A stretch of DNA of 62,431 nt. Origin: Psammoneis japonica (taxonomy: Eukaryota). This document shows positions 7,620 through 40,820 of the stretch, in pieces. The stretch is from assembly GCA_008632985.1 (NCBI GenBank), contig QPGO01000148.1, positions 124,001-186,431 of the forward strand. Direction: 5' to 3'. How positions within the stretch are numbered: position 1 is the stretch's first letter; each line of letters starts with the position of its first letter. The position numbers and the translations under genes were made by a program. The notes under the pieces were generated by a model, which searched no databases, had not been told where the DNA came from, and saw nothing but the letters and a program-made list of their open reading frames with translations.

Positions 7620-9190
7620 CGGTTGAGCACGGCATTGTTGCAGAGACAACAAGAAAACAGAAAACTTTCAAGTCAACCACTTGCCAAGCCATTTTACTCC
7701 CCACGAGTGAATGCTTGCCGTGCGGCCATGTCACCGGCACAGCAAAACCCCGATTCAGCATTCCATCAATGGCGTGATCTGCTCAGTGAGCTCTTGCTGC
7801 TTTGCAAACTGGCACTTGCTGTCTGTTTCAACAGCCGTGGTCTTGAGCGACCCGTGAACGGGCAACTTCCTGTGCTCAAAGACACAAGAGTGACATGGAC
7901 TCAAGGCCAGAGAGATGCACTCAATTTGCCCAAACAACCTCTGGAGTTAACTGGTGACACCTGCAATGCCACCTTCAACCATGCAAGAGAGCTGAAGCAA
8001 CTTAAACAAAAAAAAAAAGAGAGACAAGCCACCTGTGCTGGAGTCAAGCTCATGGCATGTCAGGGAAGAAGAAGGAGAGAATCACACCACATGGGCCAAA
8101 TGCTCTGAGGTCATTGTTTGTCATGCTTCTCAAATGATGAAGCAAAGAAAGTGCTTGATCCTTCTCTGCACTGGAAAGGACTGTGCCTTGCTTCAACAGA
8201 CAGGTTTTGATGCTCCACCAGCTGGGGTTGCTGTGCTTCTGCTTTGCCTGTGGCAACAGCAACATTCCGGCACCCAGCAACTGAGACTTTGTTGCAGCAA
8301 TTTGTGCACAGTCAACAGGAGGTTTTGTTGTGAATCTGAGTGGAGCACCAGGTGTTGGTCTAAAATCCAAGCCAGGGTTGCTTGGCAGAACACCCCCTGC
8401 AAAGCTCAATGACATGTGGGTGTGCTGAGCAAGGACAGCAGTTGGCACTCAGTTTGTGCTGGAGAGCCCCACAGCACACCTTGGAGCAAAAAGCTTGTAG
8501 CCAAAGGGGGGGGGGGGGGGGTGTTGCCAAGGAGGCAGGGGACTTTTTTGTCTCTTTGGGTTGCAAACCATGGCAGAAGAATGGTGGGCTGGTGTCAAGA
8601 TGCACTGCAAAAATGACTCATTTGCTTGCATGAAGACAAGATGCCATTGCTGGAAATCCATTGCACACTTGACATGATGCTGCCATTTGATGTCTTGTGC
8701 AAAGGCAGAGAGAGAAGCACAAAGCAAGCAGCGCAAGCAGGTTTCCTGACATTTCAGCCACACCAATGACAGAAAGATCATTTGTGCTGGCAGGCTTGAA
8801 GCAGGCAGTCATGGCATCTTGCTTGAGCTGGTGACGTGCAGACCAAAATGTGCAGAGCTCTGTGCAGAGGACCAATTTTGGCAATGACATTGGCCCCTCT
8901 GTTGAACTTCTGAATTGCCAGGTCTCACAGTCTGTTTGCTTGCTGCAACACATGCTTTTTAACATGGCGGCAACAAGTCCTCTGCTGCAAAGGCATTTTG
9001 TTCAGAGGCGATGACCACAGCAATTTCTTTGTTTCAGAAAAATGGCTTTGGTGTTTTGTGCCATGTCAATTTTTTTCTCTTTGGAGGGACAAAAATTCAG
9101 CGCCACAGTGGTGTCACAACAAACATTGTTTTGCATGATTTTGTTGCAATGAATTTGTGCAGAGCACATGCAGAGATGTGCCGCCAGCCT
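7620..9190. other. TpA- and CpG-depleted degenerate tract; contains a possible SF2 helicase C-terminal relic (~8100-8330, + strand)
   Basis: Only ~6 TA dinucleotides in 1.6 kb. Translated fragments LQQTGFDAPPAGVAVL and LLQQFV.RVNR resemble helicase motifs V/VI. Confidence 0.4.
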
Positions 9191-10740
9191 CAAGGGACAG
9201 GCTCATCCTCAAAATGACAAAAAGATGGGTGAAATGTGTCAATGTGCTTTGGGTGCAGAAAAGGCACTCCAAAACTGGATGTGAGGAGCTGCAGCAAGTG
9301 CATGTTTGCTCAGTGCTGCAGCCAAGAATGCCAGGCTGGTGTTTTCATTGATGTGCTGCCTTTTGCTTCAAAGATGAGCACAAAACAAATTAGAGTCTTG
9401 ACTTTAAAAAAAAAAAAAGGTTGTTTTGGGAGAACTGACTTTTTTTTGTTTCTCATTGACATGCTCTGAAACTTGCCACAAAGCAACATGCAAGTCAGTT
9501 GAAAGAGTCAGATGATGAGCCAGTGCCACAAAGTTGCAACAATTGTCCTTGTCAAGACAGGCTGTTTCTTGCATGATAAAAAGAGCTTGCAGCTCAAGGT
9601 TGCAAAGTGCAGCAGCTCACTGAACAAAGTCTTCTTTGCAAGATCTTTGTTGTTGTGTTGCATGTTTGGTCCCTGGCTCTGTTGATGTCTCTGCATTTTT
9701 GCAGAATTGACAGCTTGTGATCATGATGCAAGACCAGCTAAGTGCAACATTGTCAAGTCACCCCACCTCTTGTCACTTCTCATCCTGCACATCCCACTTG
9801 TCAATGTTTCCACCAGACTGCTGGAAAAGCAAAAATTTTTGAAAGAGCTTCATGTCAAGCAAACTGGTGTTTGAAAGCATGCATTGCTTGCTTGATTCTT
9901 GTCCTGCCACTTTTCTTGCAGTCAACATTGTGGCTCAATTCCACAAACTCAAAACAAGACACATGTGTTGCTTTGAACAAATTGTGCTCTCATCATCAAC
10001 CAGGTTTTGTCTCATTTCTGTTCTGCTCAAGCTTTTGTCACTTTCAATCCTTCAGCTTCATGTGCAAAAACAAGAGCAGCAACTCATTGCAGTGGTGCAT
10101 TGAACAAAGCTGCTGGCTCTCTAAAGAGCCCAGCTCTGCATGAACAAAAAATGAGTGTTGCGTGGAAGGAGGAGGAAGTGGCAACACACAGCACACATGA
10201 TGTGGTTTCAGAAATCACCCCACACATGTGAATCCAAGATGACAACCTCCTGTGTCACCCCTGGGCCACACCATTCCATCTGCACTTGCCACTTGCTTTC
10301 ATCTGTCTGCTGGGCTCTCAGTTGTCTCTCAAGGGAGGCATCTGTGCAGAGCTGGGAAAGGTCACAACTGCATCCCCTGTGACTCACATTGCCGCCATTT
10401 CAGGAACATTTTTGGGGTTCACAAATTCAGGCAGAAAGGCCAAGATTCTCAAACCGAATGCCGTGCATGTTTGGACACAAAGAACCAACAAAAGCGGTGC
10501 ATGCTGTTGCTGCAGCTCAGATGTTGCCACTTTTGTGTCTTGATTTTGAAGAATTCTGAACACCAAAAGGGACATTTTGGGTTGATTGAGATTGGGCAAA
10601 ATGATTGAAGAGGTGCCCACCAAATCAAGATTCTCCCCTCAACTTGCAATGCTCAAACCACTTGGAGCAGATGCTCAGGACAAATGTGGCCAGTTTGTGA
10701 AAATGTTGGCAAAAGAAAAAAACACTGCACAGCTTGGCAC
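9190..10740 (+). repeat. Hypermutated partial duplicate (copy B) of 4850-5900 (MYND C-terminus and downstream DNA)
   Basis: 9240-9500 aligns with 4870-5130 and 10140-10740 with 5300-5880. Many differences are TA->CA/TG and CG->CA/TG. Confidence 0.85.
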
Positions 10741-11339
10741 CAGGGAGTTGTGAACTTTTGCCATTGGAAATTGTTGCAGGTGGTCATCAGGGTGATTTTG
10801 AGTGTGCCCTTGACAACAAGCTGGTCAAGTCCATGAGTCTGGGGCTCCCCGCGGCATTTCTCTTGGGCAGCAAATTAAAACAAGATCCTGTTGTTCCAAT
10901 CTTGGCACATCCTGGGGATGTCATGACGTTGGGAGGGAAGAGCTGATTGTGTTTTCATGGAATGGCAAGGGTGACACCAGCAGATGCAGTGATCTCCAAT
11001 GTTTGCAAAAAGAGTTGCAGGCTCTTTTGAGAAATGAATGCATGAGCTCAGTGGCAAGCGATGGGTGTCAGGGTGCAAGTCCAGCAAATGGTGCGACAAA
11101 GTCGACGTGTCTGATTTCAGATTGTGACAAATGGGCTCTGTGGTGGTCTGTCTGTCCCAGCATCAAATGATGTCAACGTTCGACAGGTGTTTCCCAAATG
11201 GAGCACCTGAAAATCCACAAGACGAAAATTCTCAATTGGTTGTCATGCATCTCTCTGTGATGCTCTTCAAATGAAGAGCACACGATTTTTCCCATTCTTC
11301 ACGCTCCTTAAATCTAGCCACGCTGGTGTGCTCTTTTCT

Positions 11340-12760
11340 TCATCGAATGCGACGGCAGTCTGGACACGTCATTTCTTCATCTCTGTTCAATTTTGCTTTG
11401 CATTTCCCTTTTCCGTACATCCATGATCCACAATTAAGGTCGCAAAATGCAAAGCGTTTTGTTTCTTTGCTTTCACATTCGCAACAGTGCCACATCTTTC
11501 CGCACCAACATTTCCAATTGTCCTTAAAACACGCCAAACACATTCGCCCATTGCACGCCGAACATTTCTGCCAATGCCCAGTGTCTTCCATTGCACAAAC
11601 GTGGCAAACATACGAACTGCAGTTTCCAATGCATTTGTCGAGATTGCCTGAATCAAGGCACATTTCGCACAAGGCCCAGCCATCAGAGCACGGGCACTCA
11701 AACAGTGAGTTCACTGATGCGTCGCAATCACGGCAGAAAAAGCTTCCGCATTCCGCAGAACAATGGCAACCACAATCACGACAAGTTGCATTCTCGCACT
11801 CAAGACAGTGGTCTGTTGAGCAAGGGTCCGATGGGTCGTAACCGGGCGATGCGTGGAATTTTGAACTGCAATGCTCGCACTCCACCTCCATGCTGTCGTT
11901 GCTGGCCTTTCTGACAATTTCACCCAATTCTTTGTTTGCTTCCATTTTTTGTGCCTGTCCTTCTTTGGTGCATGATTAGCTTTCCCTGCCTGCATCTGTG
12001 GTTGTGGATGCTTCGACAGGAGCATCCTCAACGGCGTGACTCTTTTCCGCTGCTAGATTCTGTTCCTTGTTTTCTTCCACTTGCACCTGTCCTTCTTCGG
12101 CACCTGATTGGCTTTCGCTGCCTGCATCTGTAGTTTTTGATGCTTCAACAGGAACGTCCTCAACGGCGCGACTCTTTTCCGCCGCTACGATCTGTTCATC
12201 ATCACTGCTGTCATCCAGCACGATGGGATTCTCGCGTGCAGTCCTGTTTTTCCTTTCCAAAACTTGAGCGCGAGTCTCCCGGGTGTTTCACTTGGGACAA
12301 TTGCAGGTTGTGCACTCGGAATTGTTGTTGGAGATTTCCTTGCAGTGCACACAAAAATGGAGAAAGTGAGGAGCATGGTTTCGACAAGCAATGACGTTGC
12401 AGCCCATTTCCGACATGCAAATCATTGTCTTGCATTCCGGACACTGAACGCTTCCCTCCATCATGTTTTCCTGCTTTACAAAGGACCGGATGGACATCTG
12501 GGCGTGCGTCATCCTTCGTGATGTGGTTGCAGCATCTGCAGTCGGTGACGGGGAATCTCTTGCCACCGCATTGGATGGCACAGGAAACGGCGCAGTCATT
12601 GAGGCAGAATGATTGTGGGGAGTGGAGTCATTGTGGTCCACAGATCGCGATGGGGACTTTCATTTTCCTGCAATGGAAGTCACAGAATCCGGCACAGGCT
12701 CTGAGGTGTCAGCGCTGGGCAGTGCCACTGCTTGACGACTCATTTCTCTGCAGACTGCAA
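11340..12760 (-). pseudogene. Disrupted Cys-rich protein with an IBR/RING2-like module, a tandem acidic repeat and a C-terminal CxxC-rich region
   Basis: CPECKTMICMSEMGCNVIAC...HFCVHC pattern. A TGA at 12288 (probably from CGA) interrupts a frame that continues into ERKNRTARENPIVLDD. AAEKS.AVED.PVEAS.TTDAG occurs twice. CxxC-rich ORF 11340-11945. Confidence 0.55.
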
Positions 12761-13039
12761 GCAGCGCAGCAAGAAAAGAGAAGAGCCAGCAGAGCAGGTG
12801 TCACTCAGGAGAGATGGAAGATGGGCACAACAACGTAGAAGTGCAAGCATGTTCATTCTCAATTCATCGCTCCAACAAAAAATGGCAATCGTGTGTCTGT
12901 CTTGTGTCCGTCGGTGTCACAGGGTTGTTCTTCGTGTCACCACTTTGCGGTCAAAATTCAGAATTTGCAATCGTGATGACAACAGTTGACTTTCTACTGG
13001 GCTCATTTCGTCCACTGAAAGGTGAGTCCAGCTGAATTC

Positions 13040-14380
13040 ATTCACTTTGTCAGAGCCAGGACATGCGTTGAGTGCACGTGTGTGAGAAAGTGGTCCGTTT
13101 TAAGTGGCCGAACGATGTCGAAAGAACGCGAGAGCGAGGGCATGAGCAGCAGGTGGCAGAAATGCAAGCACTGAATTTTTCGATGCAACATGGACTTGAA
13201 TGGCCTCTGGTGCATGTGTTTGCATCAGTGTTTGTTCTCTGCATGCAAGCAGGTGCAGTGCCGGTTGGTTTTGCAACCCCGTTCTTGCAGCATTCTCTCT
13301 GTGTGGAAACACAGCATGCAGAGTGCACACCAACCACTGCTTTGTGTGAGTTGTTCTGCAAAAATGTTTTCTCTCACATCTTTGATCAACGAGTTTCCAC
13401 TCGCTTGGGTCTGCATGGAACCCATGCTTGTCACACAACAGATGGCAGTTGTGCCAGTAAATTGAGAAGTCCAGCCTTCTTGTGTTGTCATGAATGAAGG
13501 TTTTCAGAGACTCAAGGATGTTGGAATTGTGGAGCCCAATGCTGACATGATGGAGATGGCCATGTTTTCTTTGGCAGCTTGCGCCAATGTCAAAAGTCAT
13601 GCAAATCTTGGAGCTGTTCAAATCAAACATTTTCAGGTGCTTGTTTGGTGGATTCAAGATGGGCAGCATCATGGTCAACAGTTGACAGCTGGTGATGCAA
13701 CTGCAAATGTTTTGGCAACAGCTGGTGAGCCAAAGCTTCTTGTTAAAAGGAAAGGGAGAGTGCTGCTGTTTTGGTTGGCAACCTGGCAAAGTTCAAGCCT
13801 GAAAATTGCAATTTGCACAAGGGTGCATTCTTGAACTTGTTGTTGCAAAAGTTGAGCACTTTGAAGGCACCGTTGTGACATGTTGTCCATGCATGCTTGC
13901 ATTGCACCAAATGACTTTGTGAGTGAGGAAAAGCACATCATGTGGTGCCAGTTGCCACTTGTTGGTCTGCTTTTGAGGAAGACAATCTCACAGGTGCACT
14001 GCATGGTCAAAGAGCATCTGTTCAATGCCCCTGCCTGGCTGGGCTCAGATTTCCCCCAGTTTCTTGATGCTGCAGAGAAAATGGCTGTGCTGCTGTTTGG
14101 TCTTGGGTCAATCATTGCAATGGTGAAGGAGAGTTGAGCAAGCACACCGCTTTCTCCAAAAGTGCCATCAAAATGGTTCGTCACAAGCACAAAAGGGTGT
14201 GTCAATTCAAGAGACTTGCCAACAGGCTCACAAAGGCATTCATTGCCCTTGACAAGGATCCTGACTTGAGACACTTGGAACATCAGAAGGCCAACATGCT
14301 TTTGCACTGCAGCACTCAAACAACTGCTGATTCTGAGTTGGTGGAGTCCAGTTGTTTTCGACAACACATGCTGAGTTTTG
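13040..14380 (+). mobile_element. Degenerate CoDi-type copia relic (LTR end, PBS-like site, gag N-terminus), related to the 16.3-23.2 kb element
   Basis: attcattcac-tttgtcagagcc at ~13036-13057 mirrors the LTR-end/PBS junction at 16477-16498. ORF 13490-13834 (EGF..LKDV...LGAVQIKHFQVLVWWIQD) aligns with gag EGFTTLENI...LGTVQIKNLQAPVWWCQD. Confidence 0.75.
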
Positions 14381-15085
14381 ATTGGATGTGAACAATGTGG
14401 TTGCACTTCATGACTGAAGCTCCGTTCAACACATCCATGACCCATCTTGCTGCTTTTGTTTTGCATTGTGCATGTTCAACAATGTTTGGCAGTTCTGTTC
14501 AATGCATCCACGACCAATCGCTGCTTTTGTTTTGCATTGCACACTCAACAATGTTTGACTTCCATCACCATGGCTGACACCAACAGCAGCAACCATGTTT
14601 GTGACAAACAGATGGAGGTCAAGGGGTGATGGATCCAATGACAGGGCAAGGACACTGCTTCTCTCTTGCCCGCAGCAAAGCATTTCAGAAAGACTTGATT
14701 GTTGCTGTGGGGAGGAGATCACCTCACATGTGAGAGAACATTTGGAGCCCTTTTCCTGAAGTCACCAAGGACTGGCTTTCATGGAGATTGATGACCTTTG
14801 GCCTGATTGACACCTCAAGATGAAAATTGGCCATGGCTGGAAAGTTGCTTGCATGAAAAGTTGGACAGAGCACACCTCTGGGCCCTTTTGCCCTGAAACG
14901 TTTTGCTGTCTTACAGTCAAAGTTGACAAGAGAGACAACGGCAAACTTGTGCATGGAGATCAAGCCAAGATTGATGTTTTGTTGCATTCTGCAACAGAGC
15001 ACAATGGCAATTTTGGTGCTGTCAAGAAGTTTGATGAGGCATCAGGGCACCACAAGGCATGCCACCGGGTGTGCAATCATGAAAA

Positions 15086-15140
<55 letters not shown>

Positions 15141-16300
15141 TTCAGATTTCATGCAAACCCAAGAATCCAGTGTTGGTGGCCAGGAAACAAGAGCTGGAGG
15201 TCACAAAGTGTGACATTGATGAAAGTGGCATGCACCAGGGAAACCCTTTTGAAGGAATGCAGGACAACATTCCCTTTGTGTGGCTGGATCCACCTGTGGC
15301 CCCAGCTGCCACCCCATGCGATCATGGCGGTGTCGCTGAGAACTTTGAACTTGGAAGTGCCCACGAGAAAGCCATGGGTCACATGTTGGTCCTTTTACTT
15401 TTGGCAGTCAAAATCTGCAGAAGTTCAATTCATGGTGGAAGCGTTTGCCAATGAGAGTCTCACACTCGCCACGACAAAGGTTTTTTGCAATCATTTGTTT
15501 GCATGGTGTGTGAAGGAGCACCTGAAGGGCCAACTGGGCATTTTGCAACACACAACAATGCTTTCTTTCTCTTCTTTCTTGTGCACAATCTGCATTGTTG
15601 CTGTGTTCTGGAATCCAACAGAATTTGATGCACAGACAATGACTTGGAGGAGAAGATCTCCAAAGGTGTGGACACAGAGAACTCTGGTGAACAGAGCATG
15701 GTGTGATGAAAGTGCCGGTGCACGAAGTCTCCTGTGATTGCATTGAATCACCAAAGAAAAATTGCAAAAAGATGGGAATGCCCATGTGCTTTGGGTGCAG
15801 AAAGAACTTTCCAAAACTGGAGGTGAAGGCTGTGGCAAGTGCATGTTTGCTCAGTGCTGCGGCCGAGCATGCCAACAACGTGATTGGTGCGTTCATCGAT
15901 GTGTTGCCTTTTGCTTCAAAGACACACACAAAGCAACATGCAAGTCAGTCAGAAGTGTGAACAGAGAGAATCAGATGTGCTGATCATCTGCAATGCCAGC
16001 GATCATCCATCACATGAGCCAGCTCCACACAGATGTGACCATGTTGTGTCGTCCCGAGCCAAGACAGACAATTTCAGTCCCGAATGGAAAAAGAGAGCTT
16101 GCAGCTCAAGGTTGTAAAGTGCAGTGGCTAGTTTGAGCAAAGCCTTGTTCACAAGATCTGTGTTTTCGTGTTGCATGTTTGGTCCTTGGTGCCAACACTC
16201 TAGAGAGATGTCTCTCCGCGTTTTTGGGTTTGATGGTGCTGTTGAATTGCCGCATGTCAGCAGTGAACAAACCAAAACCATGACCCATGCCATGAAGTCA
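14380..16300 (+). pseudogene. Hypermutated duplicate (copy C) of the MYND gene and flanks (3600-5170)
   Basis: Colinear alignment, e.g. cctaatcggtacctc (3976) vs cctgattgacacctc (14802), gttaataag vs gttgacaag, ttgtacacgg vs ttgtgcatgg. Confidence 0.92.
15089..15136 (+). repeat. (AG)24 microsatellite
   Basis: Directly visible; corresponds to ggagaggcagag in the paralog at ~4258. Confidence 0.95.
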
Positions 16301-16303
16301 CAC

Positions 16304-16485
16304 CGAGTAAATCTGGATGGAGGGCTGTGTCACAATTGGTGATTGGTTAAGACATGTGGATTGAGTGGTGCTGCAGCGACACGCTCACAATCCAACCAGG
16401 TTTAGGTTCGCATTGACAGTGTTGCTGCTTTCTATTTAGACTTAAGGCACCGTGCTTGTTCTTTCATTGCATTGAGATTTGTTTG
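16304..16485 (+). repeat. 5' LTR
   Basis: Direct repeat of 22973-23156; starts CGAGTAAATC. Confidence 0.9.
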
Positions 16486-16944
16486 CTTTGTCAGAGCCAA
16501 GACGAAAAAGACAGAGCAAAATGGTCTCGAATGCAATCGTCATGGACGATTGTTTGTTGTGTTGTTTGCATGGAACGTGCAGCTGTAGAAACGGCACTGA
16601 ACTGCACGCAATGAGTCAGAATTCGGATTGATGCGCACGATGATGCGTCTTGTGTCGCTTGTTGTGACATCCACAAAAACAGCTTGCAATGGCAATGCTC
16701 GCAAAGATGGTCACTGTCCTCACACGTGCAATGGGTGTGAAGGGACTGCGGCATTGGGCGACATGCCCGAGCGTGTGCCCAATGATGTCGGTTGACATGA
16801 ACGACACAGGACTGATCACCCTGATGTCGGGTGGCTGTGTGAACCCGTTGTCACAACACAGAGAAAGTGCAGCCATCATGACCATGCAGACTCACAGCCA
16901 CATGCTCCCGGTGCAGGACCTTTGCACCCTTTCTCTGTTGTGGG

Positions 16945-18474
16945 ATGGCAGCAGTGGCAGCACCAGCAGCAGCACTTGCGGCGTCAGCCGCGGCAGCTGA
17001 CGTTGATGCAGTTTCACAAGTTTGTGGTGTTGCTGACCAGAACGCAAGGGCGAGGTTGGTCTTCTGTGAAGGGTTCACGACTTTGGAAAACATCGCAGTG
17101 ATGGAGAGTGATCACGATGTGGAAGACATGGCGCAAAGGGCGTCTCGTCACACGGTGGCCGACGGACGTGTGACTCTTGGGACTGTTCAGATCAAGAACT
17201 TGCAGGCACCAGTGTGGTGGTGCCAGGATTTGCTCAAACGGAATCAGCCATTGGTTGCGGCAGACTTCAATGTGGCAGCTGTGGCTGCGGCCCGGAATGG
17301 CAGGCGCATCGAAAAGGAGCGCACGGATTCAGACGCGTCGGCAAGCGGTCTCGTAAAGTTCAAGCCCGATGACTTCGATGTGTGCGAAGATGCTTTCCTG
17401 AATCTCTTGGCACAGAAATTTGGCATGTTGAAAGAACCCCTTCGCCATGTCGTGAGGACAATGCCAGCTCCGGCTGCATTCACGGATGCTCAACAACAGT
17501 GCATGTGCCAGATGCCATTGAATGGCACTGCACATGACGAGGACAACCGCAGTGTTTGCCGCATGTTGAAGGAATGCTTGGTCGACACGGCAGGATGGGC
17601 ATGGATCGAACCGTTCAATGCGACAGAAGACGGACGTGGAGCATTCAACGCATGGGTTGACCATTGCAATGGACAGGGCGAGTTGAGCAAGTGCATCCAT
17701 CTGGCTGCGGCAACTGTTGAAACCTTGTTTTGCAAAAAGGAAGGATCGCTCCCGTTCGAAAAGTTCAATGAGAAACTCACCAGTGCTTTCACCACTTTGA
17801 ACAAATCACCGGACGACCACAAATCTGAACGACAGAAAGTTGACATTCTTCTAAAAGGGATCCGAACGGATGACACTCGTCTTGTTGCAGCAACGGCTGT
17901 CATTGGCAGTCAGCACCCTCGTGACTTCGCGGGGGCATGTGCTTGTTTCTCATCCGAAGTCTCTCGTTTGCATGCAGGTGCTCAGTTGGAAGCCCGGCGT
18001 CACTCGAAGTGCAAGATTTCTGAAATGAGCCGTGGTGGCGGCGGTGGCCGCGGTTTTTATCGAGGTCGTGGTCGCGGAGGAAGATTTGGATGTGGGGGTG
18101 GATGCGGACGTGGTGGTGGCCGTCAAGGCAGAGGTGGCGACCACACTGCAATGATCAATGGAGTCAATGCATCCAACCCTGCAAGGAGCTTTAGCGCTCA
18201 AGAGTGGGAAAAGTTGCAGCACAATGGGGGCATGAGCCACGTGTTCCAAGCTCGCGAACGAATGGGTCATGGACGTGGTGGTGGCCGTGGGTCTCCCGCA
18301 GGTCGACAAGGACGTGATGCAGCTGAAGCCCAAGTCCATCAAGATGGCCAAGGCCAAACCCAACAACAGGATCAGGAGCAAAGGAGTGGCGGGCGTGGTC
18401 GCGGCGCTGACCGGGATCGCGGTGGACGCAATGGATGCGCCTTCGGTCGGGGAGCCTACAATGGTTCCACCTGA
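16945..18474 (+). CDS. Copia Gag (Tyr-depleted, RGG-rich C-terminus)
   Basis: 509-aa ORF with CoDi gag features (EPLR.VVR, DGRGAFNAW..H.NG.GE, RGRG tail). Only 2 Tyr. Confidence 0.85.
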   Translation: MAAVAAPAAALAASAAAADVDAVSQVCGVADQNARARLVFCEGFTTLENIAVMESDHDVEDMAQRASRHTVADGRVTLGTVQIKNLQAPVWWCQDLLKRNQPLVAADFNVAAVAAARNGRRIEKERTDSDASASGLVKFKPDDFDVCEDAFLNLLAQKFGMLKEPLRHVVRTMPAPAAFTDAQQQCMCQMPLNGTAHDEDNRSVCRMLKECLVDTAGWAWIEPFNATEDGRGAFNAWVDHCNGQGELSKCIHLAAATVETLFCKKEGSLPFEKFNEKLTSAFTTLNKSPDDHKSERQKVDILLKGIRTDDTRLVAATAVIGSQHPRDFAGACACFSSEVSRLHAGAQLEARRHSKCKISEMSRGGGGGRGFYRGRGRGGRFGCGGGCGRGGGRQGRGGDHTAMINGVNASNPARSFSAQEWEKLQHNGGMSHVFQARERMGHGRGGGRGSPAGRQGRDAAEAQVHQDGQGQTQQQDQEQRSGGRGRGADRDRGGRNGCAFGRGAYNGST

Positions 18475-18483
18475 CTCCTTGGG

Positions 18484-23156: not shown

Positions 23157-23221
23157 ACACCACACCGCGCGCATGCCGACACCGCGGTGCGTCGCACATC
23201 ACCGATGCTCACCATGTCACC

Positions 23222-28139: not shown

Positions 28140-30480
28140 GACCCGCAAATCTCAAGGAGGTTTGTGTCCACTGAGACATGCACCAGCAATCACAAGCAGA
28201 AAGGATCAATGTTGCTTGGTTGCACCAGAGAAAGGCTGAGACAAGTGCCTTGTTTTGTGACCCGCCAGATTTTCAGCCGGAAATGAAGCAGCTCAAGGCT
28301 CACAGCGTCAATTGTGGAAACACCAACTGGCAAGGACTCAATGCAATCTTGTTGAGATGAGAAGTGATTGTGTGGAGAATGGCACAACTCAATGATGATC
28401 AAGAGACGGACAGTGTTCGAAAGCATTGTGCAGCCACCAAAGGAGATGTCGTCTGCTGTGATGTGTGCTTTCTTGTGTGGCTCTGTTTCTCCAGGAGATC
28501 TTTTGCAACTTTTCTGACCTTGTCACAAGGCATCTCAACAGAAAAAAAATCCACACAGAGGTTTTTGTCTTTGAGACCAGATTTCCGTTTTTTTCCACAT
28601 TCCCGCATTTCCAGATTTCCGAGTTTCCGTTTTTCTGGATGTCCGGGTTTCCGTTTTTGTGGATTTCTGGGTTTCTGTTTTTCCACTTTTCAACGTCAGC
28701 CACACGCCCACAGCTTCTACGTGGGTTTCTATGCACCTTCTTGCACTGATGTTGCCCTTCTCAGATGGTGTTGATTTGGCTCCAACAAGCCCATTCTGCC
28801 CACGTTTGCGCCAATGGTGCATCCTCACCACAGCATGATGAGCAAAGTTCATCAGTGGAAAACGATGAGTGTCCCGGCCTTTTGGTTCGTAAGCTGGTTG
28901 TTTTTTCTTGTAATTTTCTGTTGTCTCAGAAAATTTTCTACAAAGGTTCTGGTGCAAATTCTGCGCGGATCTGCAGATGCTGCTGACGATCTGCATGTCA
29001 CTTCCCCAGCCTGCTTTTGTCCTTGCGAATTGGTTCTCAATGCTGCTTCTTTTCCTTGCCATGCAATCAAGTCCTTCACTCTTTGTGGTGCAAGCCCACT
29101 TCTGTTGCGGCCCTTTTCAGCAAGAACATTGGTTGTCCTTTGGAGTCATTTGATTGTCATTGATTTGCTGCTCCCATCGGTCTTTCTGCGCAAGATCTGG
29201 CATTGTTTCTGTGTGCTGCCTCTGACTGTCTACGTGTCACTTCTCTGGACCACTTTTGTCCTTGACAATTGGTCTTCAACCTCTCCACTTTTCTCTGCCA
29301 TGCAATCAAGTGCTTCACTCTTTGTGGTGAATCTGCTGCTTCTTTTGCGGCCCTTTTCAGCAAGAACACAAGTTGTCCTGTGGTGCCATTTGATGGTCTT
29401 TGGTTTGCTGCTCTCAGTGGCTTTTCTGTGCAAGACTCAGCATTGTTTCTACGTGTCAAGAACATTTTCTCCAACGACCTGCTTGTCTTGCCTTCAAGGC
29501 TGCCTTTGTGGACTGTTTTAAAAACCCATCTGAGTGCAATTGTCCGTTGCAGTTGTGGTGTGCCTTCTGTGGCTGTCATCAACAAGCACGCAACAAATCC
29601 CTCATGTGAATCATTCCTCCCAAGTCATCTTGGTGGGGTGTCATCTTCTGGTGACGCCCATTCCGGCTGATCCCGTGCAAGCTCCTGCCGCACTTGACTG
29701 TGTGCTGGGAGTGTGGGTCAGCCGGCGCCGGCCCAGCTGGCAAAGGAGTGACAGCACTCAAAAAACAGATCTGTTTTTTTTGGGGGCTTTCTGTTTTTTC
29801 GGATGTCTGTTTTTCAGTTTTTCTGATTTCTGTCTTTCTGTTTTTCCAGATTTCTGGGTTTCCAATTTTCCAGATTTCTGGGTTTCCACGTTTCCGGATT
29901 TGGTTTCCATTTTTCCGGATTTCCGGGTTTCCGTTTTTCTGGATTTTCTGGGTTTTCATTTTTCCGGATTTCCGGGTTTCCATTTTTCCAGATTTCCAGG
30001 TTTCTGTTTTTCCAGATTTCCAGGTTTCTGTTTTTCCGGATTTCTGGGTTTCCACATTTTTGAATTTCCGGGTTTCCGTTTTTCTGGATTTCTGGGTTTC
30101 CATTTTTCTGGATTTCCTGGTTTCCAGCCAAAGGGAGCATGGTGTTTGTCGATGCCTGGCATCAGTGCATGCACAAGCAGCAAGGAGACAAGCAAGGCCA
30201 GCCCATGCTTCATGTGGCTGCATGTTTTCATCAATGCAAAAGGAAACATCATCTGTGATGTGTGCTTTCTTGTGCAACTCTGTTTCTCCAGGAGAACTTT
30301 TGCAACTGCTCTGACCTTGTCACAAGGCATCTCAACAGAAAAAAATTCCACACAGAGGTTTTTGTCTTTGCAAGAGATGAAAGTTTGTGAGGAACAAGAT
30401 GAGGAGTTGGCAGCTTGGCTTGACAATGAAGAGGGGCAAAAGCTTTAAGATGGAAGAGAGCAAGTTCAGCAGAGTGACAC
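28140..30480. repeat. TpA-depleted composite repeat with 24-bp minisatellite arrays (~28575-28690, ~29790-30125) and internal direct repeats
   Basis: Unit consensus TTTTCCGGA-TTTCCGGG-TTTCCGT. ~130-bp direct repeat 28440-28572 / 30240-30370. ~240-bp-period duplication 29030-29460. Confidence 0.85.
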
Positions 30481-30489
30481 TTTGCAAGG

Positions 30490-32620
30490 TTGCTGACAGG
30501 ATTTGAACAGGATTTGGATGCGCGCGAAGTATCGCGCGCTGTTTAGTTTACCGCGCACAGTTTTGTGTGCTTTAGTTCCGCGCGTTCGCGCGCGATGTAG
30601 TTTGCTTTCGAGCCACAAGGCTCACAAGAATAATAACAGTAGCCCGATTATACCGACTTACACGTCTTTCGGCTCCTGTAACGGTCTCTGAGCGGAGACT
30701 CATCTGCTATTTAGACAGCAGTAAGGAGTTATTGTTTGAATTCTTGCCATTTGCCTTCGATTTCTGTCAGATTAACAGTCTTGCTCATTGTCAACCCATT
30801 GAGCAACCGCCATCGTCGTCGTTGATTTACCAACGACGCTATTTCAATTCTACGTGGACCTCCGTATATATTCTACATACATCGGCAAGTCTACGCGCAT
30901 TCAATACCAGGGCATCGGCAGGAAGTTAACGTCACCGTCAAGTCTCCTTACCGCTGGATATCTGGATTGATTATACTACCTTTGATCGCTGAATACTTAT
31001 ATTCAACGGTCATATCCAAGACTGTCAGCTTGATCAACATCCCTTGATAAACCTATTCTTCGGTTAACGGTCAAGAACCCTACATATTCAAGGATCTTCG
31101 TCGCTGAAGACATATATATATATACATATCTTCACGGCCAAGAACCTGTACCCACTCTTCGGACCACGGTTTTGCTGCCACTCTACAAGCACACCGAGTC
31201 CATTGTACCTGATCTACCCCGGACTGCTGGTGCTCTACAGTTCTACTAGGTCCACGAGGACGACTGTGAGAGCAAGCAGCCGTGATTACAGCCTACGTTG
31301 GGGCGAGGGTGCTTTCCCGCGTTTGTTCGTTCGTCCACAGCGCCCAACGCCTGCGTCAACTGGCCAGCCTGATCGGGAAATCCAACCGACATAAAATGAG
31401 AACGGTTCGGGGGTCTTGTCCACCTCTGGTCAGCTCACCTGCAGGGGTTTACAACCCGCTGCTCCGCTCGTAAGCAACCCAAAGCGCCACCAGCTGCGGG
31501 TTCGGACGTGCCGGCACAACTCTACGGACCGGATGGGAAGTTTAGCACTCAACAACGAACGGGATGGCAAAGCCCGGCGACTTCTGATTTTAAGATAGTT
31601 CAAGATTTCAAGTCAAGTCCATTTCAAGTCAAGTCCATTCTCACCCAAGTTTCAAGTCTACCTTCGTTTTTCGAGTCTACCTTCGAGTCCACCTTCGCTT
31701 CCCAATCAGAATTGATTGTCCTGACACCACTTTTGTCCACCATGGTTCTCACTCGTCAGCAACAAATCGATGGTTTTGAGCACGTTGTTGGAACCGTGCT
31801 TGCCCAAGGTGCTGGGAGTCCTCTTCGTTTGGCTTTGGCCCAAGACGGCACGGACTCGCATCAGGAACTGTTCACGTTCATGCCGTCCCAAATCGACTCG
31901 CTTGAGTGCGACAACGGCACCAATGCAATCCCTTTGCCTCGTGGTTACAAGAACATGTTAGCAGCGCTAGTTGGTCTGTGCATTGTCAAAGCACACAAAG
32001 GTCTTGACGTTGCCAACGACTCCTCTTTGTTCATGCATGACGAGTTCCTTGCCTGCCGCCTCAGCCCGGACTGCATGTCCTCTGTGTCCATCGGCAGCTC
32101 ACCCCTTGCACCTCCACATGTCACCAACCCGACCAAGGCACGCGACCCGGTGCGAGACTTCAAGCGAGGCATCAAGCGTGATCCCACCGCTTTCACGGCT
32201 CTCAAATCCGACAAGCAGTGGCACACTTGGCACACCTCACTTGTGGCACAAGCCCGTGCCCAAGACGTCGAGTGCATTCTAGACTCGTCGTACAAACCGA
32301 CCAGCCCCGAAGACAAACTGCTCTTTGCTGAACAGCAAAAGTGCATGTTCGCCGTCTTCGAACGCATCCTTCTAACCGACAAGGGCAAGGCTCTCATTCG
32401 CGAAAATGTGGGGTCTTCTGACGCACAGACCGTCTGCCGCTCCTTGTCTGAGCACGCGCTTGCCTCCACCCGCGCATCTGTCGAGTCCTCCACCCTGCTC
32501 ACGCACCTCACCACCGCACGTCTTGGTGATGGCACTTGGAAAGGTCCAACCCACGGGTTCATCCTTCATTGGCAAGATCAGTTGCGCAAGTGCGAGGCAC
32601 TCATCCCCGCCAGTGACCAC
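30490..32620 (+). mobile_element. 5' fragment of a second-lineage CoDi copia: putative LTR/leader plus truncated gag (ATG 31742)
   Basis: Gag motifs DFKRGIKRDPTAF.LK.DKQW, AQARAQDV..ILD, LLTDKGKALIR, WKG..HGFILHWQDQLR typical of diatom copia. The LTR/leader assignment and left boundary are inferred. Confidence 0.75.
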
Positions 32621-33471
32621 TTCTCTGCATGTGGCGAAGCCGTCAAACGCTCCATGGCCACCGCATCTTTTCGGTGTCGATCGAAATTCAATTCGTCAAA
32701 CGTGTGCCAACAGCACAGCGTTTTTAACACACGCTTTTCCTGGTTGATGTCTCGAATCACAAAGACATCACGAAAGCATCCGTGTGCTTTGTAGCAAATC
32801 TGCCGATGATGCTTGTTCCGTTCACAGTTAAAATCAGACATGTCGATCTCATGCACATTGTTGCAAGCCGGAAAAGACTTGGACTGCCACTCGTACATTG
32901 GTTTGCACTCTGGATGTTCTTCGTAAACTGCACATTTCGCATGCCTGACGCAATGCTTGCTGTTGTTCACAATGTCATTCCGTCGTTCCAAATCGTCAGC
33001 GGAAACATTCATTTCCCTCTTGCTTGGACACACCGGGCAGTCGTCGGGAAGTCGCTGAAATGACGGTCTGTCAGGCTCAAGGATCTCATCCAGAATGTGA
33101 TTGGTGCAGATCACAAGTCTGGGGCGTACGCCACATCCAAGTTTCAAAAGATCGTCGACTCCGCCCACGGTGCAGGATGCGCCGAGCAGATGATTCAACC
33201 TGTTGCTCGCGCACATTCGTCTCAGTCCTCCACGGCTGAGCAAATCATGGGGAGGAACAGTGCTGGCCTCATTGCTGCCTCCCTGCCTCCACACAAAGAT
33301 CACAAACAACCATCCAATCAATTGAAGAAACAAAAGCACAGCAAGTGAAAGCCACACCTTTTGAACTGCAGTCATTCCCTCGCGTCGGTCATTTCGCATT
33401 CTCCCCTTTCTCAAGATTGTTCGAGACTGTTTCAGTGCTCTTCGATTTCCCATTCTAGAAATGACACTCAC
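32620..33471 (-). pseudogene. 3'-truncated diatom membrane-anchored protein kinase-like gene
   Basis: TM segment, then FPACNNVHEID, AHGCFRDVF, VLKTL, NFDRHRKDAVAMERLTASPH (kinase N-lobe of a diatom family). Breaks at the junction with gag. Confidence 0.75.
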
Positions 33472-34367
33472 GATATCAGAAGCTGTAGACTTTTCTCAGC
33501 CAGGACAAGACGGACAAAGCCACCAAAACCGTCAGTCTGTGTTGCCGATCATTGCGTGTGGAGGACGAAACGAGACGGAAGAAAGAGGCGGGTGACGTTG
33601 CGTGATCGTTGGATCGAACATCAAATTTTATAGGTATATAATGAATGGAGATCCTAATAGTCCGTTGAGAATTTTTTTCAACGATATTCATTTGATATAT
33701 GAAATTGAGGTTTATTAGAACTAGATAAGAAATCATACTGCCCTGAACGTAATAAACATACGAGCACAGAGCTTTTGTATAAAAAGATTTTTCGCCACAA
33801 AATGCAGAGGCCGAAACAACCAACCAAGGCAAGAAGAAAAATAAGGCAGCGCTCGTTCTTTGTAGTACAGTATGGTCTAGCCATTTGATAGGAGCGCCTT
33901 GCTGCCTTAGAAATCTATCGGCCATACCCACTGACCTTTTCTAACGTTTCCACGCAAGAAAAATCAGGGAAGGAACAAGTTCTCTTCGTTGTACGTCCTC
34001 AGGGTGCATTAACCAACGTTTCGGGTGTCACATGCATCCAACAACAACAACAAAATTTTGAAACATTGAACGGTGGACAAGTAGGAAGCTGGAGACGACG
34101 CTCTGAATCGTACTTTGGAAGATAAACCATACCGGTAGTAATCTAGAATACGACGAGAACGAAAGAGCGAAATCGGACGAGGCTACCAGAGTACTTCTAG
34201 AAATTAGGACAAAACCTAGAATTCTATGTCCATCGAAGAGAGCATGAATACCTTTTTCGCAATGCTGGTAACGCAATTGTTACTAGTACTTTTCTTTATC
34301 CTACACATCCACAATGTTCCCAGATCCCTTCCCATTTCCCGCTCTCCGTAACATTTATTGACAGGCA

Positions 34368-36605: not shown

Positions 36606-36909
36606 ACGTGATTTTCACAAGAATCAAAGACAAGTAAAAGATCTCGATGGAGGAGATGGGAGATGGCTGCGGGAGATGATAATATAAGGGCGAAACAAAC
36701 TTTGTTGAGTTGCCACTGTTGATTTGATGAGCATATCACTTCGTTGTGGCTGAGATTGAAGATGGACGCAATAATATCGCGCTCGATCTCAGAGCATTTT
36801 GCATTTTTAAAAATATTCGATGACTTATAAAATGAATGAACCGGAATGAGCAGGAAATTGGCGCGATGCAAAACTCCGGGTTCTCACCGACTCTACAATT
36901 CTGCAATCT

Positions 36910-37960
36910 CTCTATGAGAATGTGGACTGGGAGCTGAAGGATGAGAGAATTTCATCACACACACTCACGATCTCTTCAAACACCGCTGTGGGAGGTGCCA
37001 GGAGAACACGGCTTGTTGTTGAAAAAATGTGCCAGCCAGGAGCACCCACGTTTGTGCTGGACTGGCCAGCAGTGGAGCTCAGACAAAAGAAAGCTCAGCA
37101 AGCACAATCTCAACAGTCTCAAGCAGCAGCTTCTTGCCAATTTCTCAAAAAAAGGTTGCTGTGGGCCATCTCTGCTGTCAGCCCACAAGCCATCATGCAT
37201 TGCTCAGGATGTCAGCAGAGGGTGACTTGCTTGACACTGAACAACATGACATGCTGCAACCATCAGTGAGGGCAACAACAGCACCAGGATGAAAATGACC
37301 TCTGTGCCTTCCATGCTTCAAACTCTCATGTCATCACACATTGCTCCAAGTCAACAGGACGCGCCCATGAGGACTGCAAACATTTGCCATTTGAACAACT
37401 CTGGTGATTGTTGGACTCGCCATTCCACGGCACAGGAACAAGTTTCTGACAGAGGAGCTCCTTCCTTGCGGCATGCTGTGAGAGCCTCCAACCGAGCAAA
37501 TTTGTCATCTTCATCCAACAGATCAGGGGAGCATGCTGCACATGGGAAAAGCTGTGATGAAGAAAAGGCTTTTTTAGAAGCGCAGTTGGCCCCCACTCAT
37601 GGATTTACAATGTGTCATTCTGTGTGCTGTTGTGGGAAGCATTGCTTGACATTGCTGTTGCACGAGAGTGCATCAAGGGTGACAAACAGCAGCGCTTTGG
37701 AAACGGTGAGCAACGAAGCATGGCAGAGGCTGAGTGCAACAGGAGGAAGCATGAGTGAAAGATCGCTGAATGAAACACCCTGTGAAGGTGAGAGCTGGGG
37801 AACAGACTAAAAGAAAAGGTGTGAGTCGACATCATGCTGCTGTTTTCAAGAAGTGAGCTCATCTTGGCACACAAATTGAGTCCACATTGTTGACAAAATT
37901 CTACATTGAACACACAAATTCCTGCATCACAATTCCACATGGTAAATTGTTTGGTCCCCT
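36910..37960. other. TpA/CpG-depleted unidentified relic adjoining the copia fragment
   Basis: Compositional only; no recognisable domain. Confidence 0.5.
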
Positions 37961-40820
37961 CAAGTTGATGAGGCAGACACTGAGTCACCTTGACTCAATT
38001 TACAGTCTGGTCATGTTTGGCTGCACAAAGGCAACAAGGAAACCCCAGTGACCTGCAACAAACCCAATGGGATGAGGGAAGTGGTTTCTGAACTTTGCAA
38101 ATCCCTCGTGAAGCATCATGCTCACAAGTCCATCTTGTTTCATGCCACCGCACATGATCTCAGTGGTGATGTCCACCGGATTGCATTCCAGTCGGATGTG
38201 TCCAGTGAGGGATTCACCCATTGCTGCCAACTCTCTAACAGCATGGTGTGGCAAATCGAGCTCAACTTCTTCAAAGTAGACTCAGGACTCTGCGTGTCAT
38301 GAATGACAGACATGTTGTCACCATGGATGCAGGACGGACCAGACAAGAATGGTGTGCCCATCATTCGCAGTTTGCACCTCAGACCATGCAAGGCTTCCAT
38401 GCCCTGCTTCATGGCCACAAATTTGGCACCAAAGACCAAAATCTCAATGGTGCTCTGGCACTTGGAAAACCATGTGACCAAAGCCATGTTCAAGCAAATG
38501 AAAAAGCCCATGTGTGAATGCCTTGTCAACTTGTCATTGGCATGATCAAAGTCAACAAACAGGTGCAGATCAACCTCCTTGCCTGGAGGGATTGGCGCAT
38601 TGCCGGGGACCGCCTCCTTGACGTCCCACAAAATGACTTGCAGTCACATTCCTTGAAGTCAGACATGTCTGTGTCTGGATGTGTCAGATCAAACACCAGC
38701 CTGGTGTTGTGCCTGTTCTTGCTTGAGGCACCTGCACACACATGCAGGACAGCCTCGAGGTGGCCCTCCCTTGCCATGGTGAGGAAGGAGGCAAGCTTGG
38801 AAACCTCAGCAATGAGATCCACACATCTGAGTTCAACTGTTCAGTGCAGGACACCCACCTGTGACTGGCAAAACTTGGCTTCATTGGCATCCAGCTCAGG
38901 CGTGGTGTCAACCTTGGGTTGACAGTCACATGGGAAAGGGGCCGTTGCCCGGCACGGCAACGTCTTTGCTCCCAGGCTCTTTGCATGAAGATGTGCCTCT
39001 ACATTCTTGACAGCCTGTTGGAGACGCACTTGCTGGAACTCATGTCCCAAGCATGGACACCACTCGGCAGCTCTGCTTTGCGGATCTTGGCTCCAAGATG
39101 CATCTTGGGATCACCCGTTTAACTGGGCTTCATCTTGAGGTGTTGTTCAATCTCCTTTAGAGCACATGTGGCATCGTGGTGCACCATCAAAATGTCATCA
39201 ACACACAACAGTGCGCAGGCACAGCACAGGAACCCATCATTGGGTCGGACCTCTTCCATCATCCAGACATCAGGGTCCACCAGGCACAGCAGCCATCCAA
39301 GTGTCACATGCATTGGGCCAAATGATTTCTGAAAGACATGCCAGCACTCTTCAATCCACAAAGGGCATGCTGGACAATCGCTCTCTCACCTGCATCAGGT
39401 CTGAACTCTGGTCCCAGAGTCACAGTCATCTTCTCGCTGTTGGGAGCGGTGATGCAGACACTCTTGATGTCTGCGGCTTTAACCTCAAGGTTGTTGAGGG
39501 CAGCAAGAGTGAACACAATCCTTGCACTCTCACAAGAGACAACACTGGCACATGTCATCACAGCCGGAGGTTCAGCAGTGTGTCCCCCTGCCACATGGCG
39601 GGCCTTGTGCTTGAAGTCTTGGAGTTCAACATCAAAGACCAAGTGGCATCTGACATGCTGGCATCCCACCAGATTCTCATCATTGTCAACAACCTCAAAG
39701 GCTTTTCTGACTGTGCCCATCTCCTTGTCAACAGCATCTTGCCATTGTCGGTCCTCATTTCCCTCATCAATCTTGACGGCTTCTTCACAAGTCTTGGGAA
39801 CACGTGTCCTGCACTTGTGTCCGCTTGAGTTGACGCTTGTTGACAGCGGCAACAATCTGTGTGTGCTTCTCGAAGGCATGTGGAATGCACCAAGCAAAGG
39901 TGGGCTCATCTTCAACAGATCCCGCCCTGGCATGCTCAGCCAGTTCAATCTGGTTTGATTCTTTCAAATCTGCAAGTTGCTCCCAAGAGGCAACACCGTC
40001 TCTCCAATGAACACAAAGGTGCCATCCTTTGGTTGTTTTCCAAGTGAATCGGTGCCCTCTGCCATCCTGGGAGACCGCGTCTTGTTTCTGGATGGCATGC
40101 TCATTGCTCTTGTGGTCCACGACAGCATCCAGCTGGTCGCCTTGTTGTCACACTGAGCAAACATGTTCTCAGCAATGACGTTGGCTGCCAGTTCTGCCTC
40201 CTGACCGTCGGGGAACTCCACCTCACAGACGCGCATGTCTGGGATGGGTTTGGCATTGGCTTGTCCTGCCAGTGTTCTGTCCGGCTTCAGCTTCTGCCGT
40301 TTGACCTTGCCGGTCTGGCATGTGTGCCCATGTGGCAGCAAAACTTCTGCATTCACACAGATGTTGTGAGCCACGTCAGTTGGCGTGTCAGCTTCTGGGG
40401 CACCAGATGGGTCTTGTTCTGAGTCGTCCTTGCATGGATCAAAGGTGGGAGTGATCACATTGGGGTTGTCAATGTCGCTGATGGTCATCCTGGGACAAAG
40501 CTTGGCCTCTGCCTTGGCATCAAATTTGTTCCGTAACGCCAAGTGCGTCTTGTGATGCCATTCCTCTGGGGCAAGAGCCCGGCAGGGCAGAGGATCTGTG
40601 GATGACTTGTCCATTTTCCTTGAGTGTCTTGGTGGTCATCGCCGGTCCTGCATCCCTGCTGGGGCCCATGCACCTCCCAGGACCTCCTTGTCTTCAGGGA
40701 ATGAGACAGCCGTGTCCCTGAACATGACCCAGTCACACCATCCGAGCTCGCACATGTGCAAAATGTCGGCGGTCTGTCCTGACACTGCTGTCTCCGGGAC
40801 TTCACCGTCGAGCTTGTAGG
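37960..40820 (-). mobile_element. Heavily mutated CoDi copia pol fragment (integrase end, RT, RNase H)
   Basis: ANVIAENMFAQCD, TTKGW.LCV.W.DG, KARHVAGGH, ALCGLKSAG, LLCVDDIL, FVDFDHANDKLTRHSH, GDNMSVI. Confidence 0.92.

Follow-up and report, generated by a model that had tools for sequence, protein, structure and literature searches.

The dinucleotide TpA has been almost entirely erased from four discrete tracts in a 62,431-nucleotide stretch of the genome of the diatom Psammoneis japonica (GenBank assembly GCA_008632985.1, contig QPGO01000148.1, positions 124,001 to 186,431 of the forward strand), referred to here as the window. The change runs from TpA to TpG or CpA, is specific for TpA, falls about equally on both strands, acts on DNA that has already integrated, stops at sharp borders, is independent of the loss of CpG and is far faster than background mutation. 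We consider it probable that the tracts represent chromosomal DNA of transposon origin, together with embedded gene copies, that has been rewritten by a targeted host-defence mutator.

The ratio of observed to expected TA lies between 0.01 and 0.16 in 22 of the 63 1-kb intervals of the window, and is at least 0.44 in the remaining 41. The low intervals sit at 8-23, 28-30, 32-33 and 37-41 kb, and the corresponding tracts are as follows.

About 7565..23154, no strand: the largest TA-depleted tract, 15.6 kb, a composite of old transposon remnants, two gene-derived pseudocopies and a full-length copia element (copia1)
28050..30500, no strand: TA-depleted tract that has internal tandem repeats and, close to either end, a 118-bp direct repeat
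31650..33600, no strand: TA-depleted tract with long open reading frames (ORFs) on both strands
36900..40850, minus strand: TA- and CpG-depleted tract with a truncated copia element (copia2; pol residues 519-1316 at 38147-40488 by blastx)

Inside these tracts there are 125 TA (5.2 per kb), as opposed to 1665 (43.7 per kb) outside; at the outside density the tracts would be expected to hold 1042 (Poisson P = 3e-285). Conversely, TG and CA rise from about 72 per kb outside to about 100 per kb inside. A first-pass annotation of the window had described TpA as nearly absent from discrete tracts and abundant in flanking genes, with about a dozen TA in 7.6-11.3 kb, and this description is accurate, the count for 7600-11300 being 12. 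The edges are sharp to about 100 bp (~7565, 23000-23150, 28050, 30500, 31650, 33600, 36900 and ~40800), and in a 100-bp scan TA falls from normal to near zero within a single step at most borders. At the left border of the largest tract the last normal TA is found at 7563-7564 and the next one only at 7695, while the final ~180 bp of the same tract, which form the 3' long terminal repeat (LTR) of copia1, retain more TA. Neighbouring host genes are unaffected, with borders resolved to within ~100 bp beside the genes for a DUF6816 protein, an ankyrin protein and DNA polymerase alpha subunit B.

Loss of TA also deletes the stop codons TAA and TAG, which occur at 4.4 and 2.9 per kb in six frames within the tracts versus 16.9 and 16.7 per kb outside, and thus generates long overlapping ORFs on both strands. 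Of the 146 ORFs of at least 110 amino acids in the window, 77 fall in the tracts, that is, in 38% of its length. A practical corollary is that gene callers may annotate the long open frames of dead, TA-free elements as genes.

The TA-free letters are present in sequencing reads. When contigs of a public sequencing run (X1) were aligned to positions 3500-23499 of the window, one contig of 6553 bases with a word depth of 64 covered 8506-15044 with three other letters, and TA-normal flanking contigs had depths of 57-62. The TA-poor sequence is therefore genuine at single-copy depth rather than an artefact of assembly or polishing, which answers the check on raw reads that the first-pass annotation had proposed. 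By the same measure, 8.2-16.2 kb of the tract is single-copy at at least 90% identity, although older, more diverged copies may exist. Assembly and single-copy contigs of the run differ at very few positions: six in 8.4 kb of tract and none in 4.1 kb of flank. Four of the five differences listed, which include 8310, 13458, 14163 and 16234, are changes between pyrimidine-purine (YR) dinucleotides (one TA to CA, three TG or CA versus CG); this hints at ongoing change or allelic variation, the numbers being small.

Direction and specificity of TpA loss

The direction of change can be read from a segment that is present in three copies.

3649..5833, plus strand: copy A, a zf-MYND gene of normal TA content lying outside the tracts, identified by self-BLAST and serving as the unmutated reference
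9211..10705, plus strand: copy B, a TA- and CpG-depleted pseudocopy matching A 4842-5833
14503..16189, plus strand: copy C, a TA- and CpG-depleted pseudocopy matching A 3649-5264

Copy A carries its zf-MYND match at 4661-5038 (E = 2.4e-10) in a region with TA observed/expected of 0.51-0.62; its 383-amino-acid ORF has no relative among 1076 candidates. Over 1326 bases aligned between A and C, 51 of the 57 TA dinucleotides of A have become CA (29) or TG (22) in C, and just two are kept. The 61 CG of A have also decayed, to CA (19) and TG (18), but 13 remain. TG and CA themselves are retained at about 90% (106 of 116 and 69 of 77, respectively). Where both B and C have lost an ancestral TA, they show different products, TG in one and CA in the other, at 4 of 10 sites; hence, the two copies were hit at least partly independently.

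The substitution spectrum, pooled over four paralogue alignments, reads as follows.

A>G at TpA: 85/180, rate 0.47
A>G at ApA: 27/382, rate 0.07
A>G at CpA: 31/342, rate 0.09
A>G at GpA: 27/311, rate 0.09
C>T at CpG: 71/209, rate 0.34
C>T in other C contexts: rate 0.08-0.10

A rate of 0.47 per TpA adenine means that nearly every TA dinucleotide has been hit once. The enrichment at TpA over all other contexts (0.47 against 0.07-0.09), which the first-pass annotation had expected, leaves no excess of A:T to G:C changes elsewhere and thereby excludes GC-biased conversion of a general kind.

Both strands are used to a similar extent, as judged by the 29 CA and 22 TG products in C and by the replacement of conserved tyrosines in copia1 with cysteine (12) or histidine (10). 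Sense-strand dinucleotides number 656 TG and 575 CA. The ratio of 10 Cys to 2 His in copia2 is weak evidence toward a strand asymmetry. The use of both strands argues against editing of RNA or of a single complementary DNA (cDNA) strand.

Does the mutator read more than the dinucleotide? Relative to TA outside the tracts, the 125 survivors are enriched in TTAA (5.9-fold) and in CTAA/TTAG (2.7-fold), whereas ATAC, ATAT and ATAA are depleted (0.15-0.28-fold). In the tyrosine codons of the two copia elements, His follows a purine in 11 of 13 cases and Cys follows a pyrimidine in 13 of 20 (Fisher P = 0.011). A preceding purine places TAY, with Y a pyrimidine, on the opposite strand, so that His after a purine is what a TAY rule would predict. 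Outcomes in the paralogues follow the same rule (11 TG : 9 CA versus 3 TG : 14 CA, P = 0.04). We tentatively suggest a preference for 5'-TAY, an adenine followed by a pyrimidine.

The loss of TpA is separable from that of CpG. Older tracts (8-11, 13-16 and 37-40 kb) have CpG observed/expected of 0.07-0.34, but in copia1, where TA is reduced to 0.04-0.16, CpG is nearly normal at 0.62-0.93. The CpG component fits decay by deamination of 5-methylcytosine (5mC) to TpG or CpA, as at 37 of the 61 CG sites in copy C, but such decay offers no account of the loss of TpA. We read the two together as a fast erasure of TpA followed by the ordinary decay of CpG that would have been methylated. According to a study of diatom methylation, diatom transposons are CpG-methylated, and many diatoms carry DNMT4 enzymes that are related to fungal RID and of unknown function (Hoguin et al., 2023, PMC9998398). 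DNMT4 is a lead for the CpG component only.

Copia elements and their relatives elsewhere

The element at 16.3-23.1 kb provides two further tests of polarity, one against homologues and one between its own ends.

16302..16483, plus strand: copia1 5' LTR, from self-comparison and LTR alignment
16951..22793, plus strand: copia1 gag-pol by blastx, reading through almost without stops
22971..23154, plus strand: copia1 3' LTR, adjoining the TA-normal host gene for DUF6816 (23117-24334)

Copia1 is a Ty1/copia LTR retrotransposon of the diatom CoDi-like type: an LTR pair flanks gag-pol, and the blastx match runs unbroken over residues 4-1511 of a 1914-amino-acid gag-pol protein. It has 769 relatives, the best at 65-67% identity. 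Copia2 is unrelated to it at the DNA level. Intact catalytic motifs are absent from both. The reverse transcriptase motif YVDD reads CVDD in each (copia1 at 21717, plus strand; copia2 at 39205-39194, minus strand), as the first-pass annotation had claimed for two independent elements, and RVT_2 scores 21.8 bits in copia1 (Pfam cut-off 31.6) and 28.8 bits, likewise under the cut-off, in copia2. The claim that the tyrosines of LYGLK and TYxxVVS are lost holds as well: the former is His in copia1 and Cys in copia2, and the latter is Cys in both. So does the noted scarcity of tyrosine, with 2 in the 530 residues of the copia1 gag frame (stop to stop) and 3 in the 670 residues of the first pol ORF, when tyrosine content among 120 homologues has a median of 3.4% and a range of 1.7-4.5%.

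These 120 intact copia polyproteins, at most 67% identical, yield 653 columns conserved in at least 70% of the sequences. Among the 25 conserved Tyr columns, copia1 keeps 3 and shows Cys in 12 and His in 10. Of 28 Ile columns, 12 are unchanged, while 6 show Thr and 5 show Val; for Val the count is 38 of 48, with Ala in 7, and for Leu it is 42 of 56, with Ser in 4 and Pro in 3. Columns of Gly, Pro, Glu, His and Cys are 94-100% kept, and with Phe, Lys and Trp included the range is 92-100%. The replacements are exactly those predicted by conversion of TA to TG or CA within codons. A second tally, with a 30-sequence alignment, gives 3 of 24 conserved tyrosines kept in copia1 and none of 15 in copia2, which has Cys in 10 of these columns and His in 2.

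The two LTRs of a retrotransposon are identical at insertion. In copia1, 17 of 182 sites now distinguish them, and 14 of these fall within changes from one YR dinucleotide to another. Seven TA of the 3' LTR are matched by TG or CA in the 5' LTR, as are three CG of the 3' LTR; the reverse is not seen for either class. Two CA/TG doublets are also present. Given identity at insertion, these one-way differences imply that conversion of TA to TG or CA continued in the chromosome after copia1 had integrated. The LTR within the tract was more strongly affected than its partner next to the host gene. Paralogues A and C, the 120 homologues and the LTR pair thus agree on the polarity that the first-pass annotation had proposed. 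Ages estimated from LTR divergence would be badly inflated for such elements, since hypermutation or CpG sites account for 14 of the 17 differences between the copia1 LTRs.

Is the footprint confined to this genome? We scanned metagenome contigs with the 30-sequence copia alignment and considered the best 80 of 545 confirmed loci, a choice favouring intact elements. TA observed/expected is 0.53-0.92 in 77 of these loci and 0.25-0.30 in three (L022, L061 and L069), which share 67-70% nucleotide identity with the window copia and contain 600-bp stretches down to 0.06 at normal CpG (0.79-0.90). Conserved tyrosines are replaced by His or Cys in 9 of 11, 5 of 5 and 4 of 5 columns, respectively, whereas six control loci kept 100 of 102. 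L061 and L069 are 91% identical and differ at 87 of 1004 sites, 47 of which lie in YR-to-YR changes including seven CA/TG doublets; this points to sister copies that would have been hit independently. We took the 150 best representatives from an exhaustive search of proteins; 137 of them cover at least four conserved Tyr columns, and three of the 137 are Tyr-less with Cys or His instead (P0280, 0 of 12 kept; P0333, 0 of 4; P0362, 1 of 5). The same copia alignment gave 37 pattern matches in a scan of viral contigs, none of which was confirmed.

A proposed targeted mutator and its alternatives

What kind of process might leave such a footprint? We envision A:T to G:C transitions at the adenine of 5'-TA-3' on either strand, arising most likely from deamination of adenine to hypoxanthine in DNA by a polynucleotide deaminase that would be recruited to silenced chromatin. 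An oxidised-thymine route would leave the same footprint as adenine deamination, and the two are indistinguishable by sequence. Targeting would follow chromatin state or foreignness rather than sequence duplication as such, and the process would be of the same kind as one recently described in the chlorarachniophyte Bigelowiella natans, namely a defence by which the host would hypermutate DNA that is silenced or foreign. In that work, 15 mutation-accumulation lines yielded 302 nuclear single-nucleotide mutations, of which 231 fell in two integrated viral regions, a nucleocytoplasmic large DNA virus (NCLDV) and a virophage insert; 230 of the 231 were A to G or T to C, all at TpA, at a rate of ~6e-7 per site per generation, about 1000-fold above background and in some lines only (Mettrop et al., 2026, bioRxiv 10.64898/2026.01.13.699255). 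The principal target there exists as a single copy, and mutation proceeds in the integrated DNA while the cells grow vegetatively; TpA-depleted coding sequences are enriched in reverse transcriptase, endonuclease-reverse transcriptase, DDE endonuclease and zinc-finger domains, and the authors propose an ADAT2-like adenosine deaminase. The main text mentions neither diatoms nor CpG nor a preference for a 3' neighbour.

The process in the window resembles that of B. natans in several respects. Both change A:T to G:C exclusively at TpA, with TpG or CpA produced depending on which strand is hit, and both spare the remaining genome while foreign or integrated DNA becomes depleted of TpA and gains CpA and TpG (Mettrop et al., 2026). 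They differ in host, a rhizarian there and a stramenopile here; in target, an NCLDV and a virophage insert as opposed to LTR retrotransposons, unidentified repeats and pseudocopies of host genes; in intensity, with a Rho(TpA) of 0.45 in the NCLDV insert as opposed to near saturation (0.01-0.16); and in the nature of the record, direct rates from mutation-accumulation lines there and a long-term footprint alone here. TpA-only hypermutation is accordingly already described as a kind, and this diatom would be a further host lineage for it, to which the window adds LTR retrotransposons and gene-derived pseudogenes as targets that have been mutated to saturation. The first-pass annotation knew of no description in diatoms; we likewise found no literature report of TpA loss in diatom transposons, but the phenomenon itself had been described in B. 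natans. By term search, Maumus et al. (2009, PMC2806351) yielded nothing on repeat-induced point mutation (RIP), point mutation or tyrosine, and nothing relevant on transitions or substitutions, and a 2025 preprint on diatom transposable elements (10.1101/2025.10.24.684338) yielded nothing on RIP, hypermutation, dinucleotides or deamination.

Better-known systems share some of these features. Like RIP in ascomycetes, the process in the window is a DNA-level transition hypermutation that inactivates transposons, with sharp limits, saturation and a dinucleotide footprint. RIP, which is premeiotic and employs the enzymes RID and DIM-2, changes C to T mainly at CpA and creates TpA, whereas in the window TpA is lost and the GC content goes up. 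Duplication is a further requirement of RIP, whereas one of our three paralogues is spared. Decay of 5mC matches the loss of CpG in the same tracts, but it cannot remove TpA, whose loss is faster and is evident where CpG is near normal. Hyperediting by APOBEC3 or ADAR is similarly a deaminase-type hypermutation against retroelements, and ADAR favours a 5' U. Each edits a single strand, either RNA or the minus strand of cDNA, with strong bias (G to A, or sense A to G), unlike the equal strands and the additional non-retroelement targets seen here, and the 3' preference of ADAR is for G, where that in the window is, if anything, for a pyrimidine.

Several other explanations merit consideration. 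The first-pass annotation had proposed an A:T to G:C mutator on both strands of silenced repeats, as a candidate 'reverse RIP'. In a form triggered by homology, as fungal RIP is, duplicated DNA would be recognised as such and mutated within the repeated unit only. The involvement of both strands is upheld by the tyrosine replacements, but we regard a repeat-directed trigger as unlikely. Its appeal lies in the multi-copy copia family and the duplicated copies B and C among the targets, in borders that are sharp near element ends and in the kinship of diatom DNMT4 enzymes with fungal RID (PMC9998398). Against this, RID-type chemistry is C to T rather than A to G, the interval 8.2-16.2 kb is single-copy at the identity given above, as is the main target in B. 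natans (Mettrop et al., 2026), and copy A of the triplicated segment is untouched, which means that simple duplication is no trigger. Editing within the retrotransposition cycle, by a deaminase or an error-prone polymerase acting on element RNA or cDNA so that copies integrate already TA-poor, would conveniently explain why the TA-poor state is largely common to the ~25-35 copies of copia1 discussed below and why borders coincide with element ends. We nevertheless deem it more improbable still, because the equal use of strands departs from the single-strand editing of APOBEC and ADAR, depletion is just as deep in non-coding sequence and in copies B and C, which derive from a gene, the copia1 LTR pair diverged by TA to TG/CA changes after integration, and the B. 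natans process acts on integrated DNA in vegetative growth.

Very little credence, in our judgement, is due to either of two remaining alternatives. Elements might be selected to avoid TA, or UpA in their RNA, in order to evade a nuclease or another TA-reading factor, and UpA avoidance is indeed known from RNA viruses and cytoplasmic RNAs; yet observed/expected ratios of 0.01-0.1 far exceed known avoidance, pseudogenes and non-coding DNA are hit on both strands, and the residues destroyed are conserved ones, including the catalytic YVDD tyrosine in two unrelated elements. Repeats might instead undergo GC-biased gene conversion, or modified bases might be misread during sequencing; this would accord with the net A:T to G:C direction and with tracts that are probably modified DNA, considering their CpG decay. 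However, A>G outside TpA (0.07-0.09) is no more frequent than C>T outside CpG (0.08-0.10), contigs built from reads show identical letters at full depth, and the substitutions are inherited, common among copies and present in unrelated metagenomes and protein records.

A number of observations weigh against a targeted host-defence mutator, or at least complicate it. One of them is the history of copia1. Over 16.2-23.1 kb the summed depth in run X1 is 1400-2100, compared with ~60 for single-copy sequence, which corresponds to ~25-35 copies at at least 90% identity, and the TA-poor state is mostly common to them. The window copy differs from the family majority by 37 well-supported transitions. 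Of these, 22 are CpG-related, 17 with CG in the family and TG or CA in the window copy and 5 the reverse, and only four single TA sites and three TG/CA doublets are among the 37. Since the TA-poor state is family-wide, most TA loss in copia1 must predate the spread of the copies. The lineage thus multiplied after losing 22 of 25 conserved tyrosines, that of YVDD included; it could have spread by trans-mobilisation via intact relatives or by segmental amplification. The first-pass annotation had held its proposal to be at odds with active family members that are equally TpA-poor, and this is partly the case, in that the copies, which may or may not be active, are mostly TA-poor. Moreover, copies A, B and C lie within 13 kb of one another, and A retains its TA while B and C have lost theirs. 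The TAY rule fails in the three environmental contigs, with counts for His after pyrimidine, Cys after pyrimidine, Cys after purine and His after purine of 7, 6, 3 and 2, counts that are non-independent because the copies are related and two of the three contigs are 91% identical. A Pfam domain search of the window ORFs finds no deaminase gene. Run X1 may derive from the sample used for the assembly and is then not an independent individual. Silenced chromatin is deduced from CpG depletion only, and the whole case is built on a long-term footprint instead of de novo mutations.

Despite these points, a targeted host-defence mutator appears to us the best account of the tracts, and it is conceivable, albeit doubtful at present, that a considerably more general statement applies. 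The mutator would then be a dedicated defence enzyme, probably a deaminase of adenine with 5'-TA(Y)-3' as its target in the double-stranded DNA of silenced chromatin, and common to SAR (Rhizaria and diatoms); in diatoms it would erase essentially every TpA within the time of ~2% LTR divergence at other sites, working alongside CpG methylation, and TA-free families would keep spreading, implying trans-mobilisation or a new mode of amplification. A natural, targeted A:T to G:C mutator of chromosomes is otherwise known from one 2026 preprint on one rhizarian alga, and a saturating footprint in a diatom and in environmental copia of diatom type suggests that the system may be widespread or ancient in SAR algae. 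Ordinary retrotransposons, not just integrated viruses, would be among its targets. Diatoms are genetically tractable, which renders both enzyme and targeting open to experiment, and a naturally occurring enzyme that deaminates adenine in DNA that is double-stranded or packed in chromatin would be of interest for genome-defence biology and base editing alike.

Remaining tract contents and host-gene setting

Apart from copia1 and the pseudocopies, the largest tract harbours the following weakly supported feature.

14080..14382, plus strand: remnant of an older copia gag, by blastx to residues 222-322 of gag-pol protein P0147 (E = 3e-6), with antisense tblastn echoes

The tract also contains a 132-bp tandem duplication at 11949-12197 (84% identical) and a GA-rich microsatellite at 15078-15145, which encodes (ER)n in an ORF and at which the reads are cut. 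Just left of its border, a TA-normal segment of ~100 bp at 7456-7556 has ~6-10 times single-copy depth. Five run contigs diverge from the window past 7556, and their consensus has TA at two window CA sites, with an agreement of 0.68 that is too noisy for use.

In the tract at 28-30.5 kb, 118-bp direct repeats (28456-28573 and 30253-30370, 94% identical) bracket most of the sequence, which may be a small non-autonomous LTR-type element and has no Pfam match. Tandem repeats of ~24 bp at 29780-30130 encode GFPGFHFS-like peptide repeats in one frame. The tract at 31.65-33.6 kb has no Pfam match at E <= 1 save for a chance-level C8 hit, and the ORF at 31400-32794 shows no similarity to the window gag or to the fetched copia loci and proteins.

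Outside the tracts the window carries ordinary host genes: dienelactone hydrolase, zf-MYND, BTB, ankyrin, DNA polymerase alpha subunit B, SAD/SRA, FYVE, 2OG-Fe(II) oxygenase, amino-acid transporter, GH53 and cyclophilin. The DUF6816 protein (ORF 23117-24334) has no match above 64% identity; its best named relatives are from raphid pennate diatoms (Nitzschia inconspicua at 59%, a Bacillariaceae metagenome-assembled genome, Mayamaea, Fistulifera and Seminavis). At 41877-42658 on the minus strand, ~1 kb beyond the border of the copia2 tract, two adjacent ORFs match SAD/SRA with 28.6 and 21 bits, under the cut-off of 30.7, and probably represent one gene with split exons. SRA domains read methylated cytosine, but the position near the tract may be a coincidence. 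The 2OG-Fe(II) oxygenase at 49006-49791 on the plus strand (2OG-FeII_Oxy_3, E = 2.9e-16) belongs to the general family and not to TET/JBP. Toward the end of the window, at 60479-61269, a gap of 461 N follows a 183-bp tandem duplication (97% identical) in a low-GC stretch (30-37% GC).

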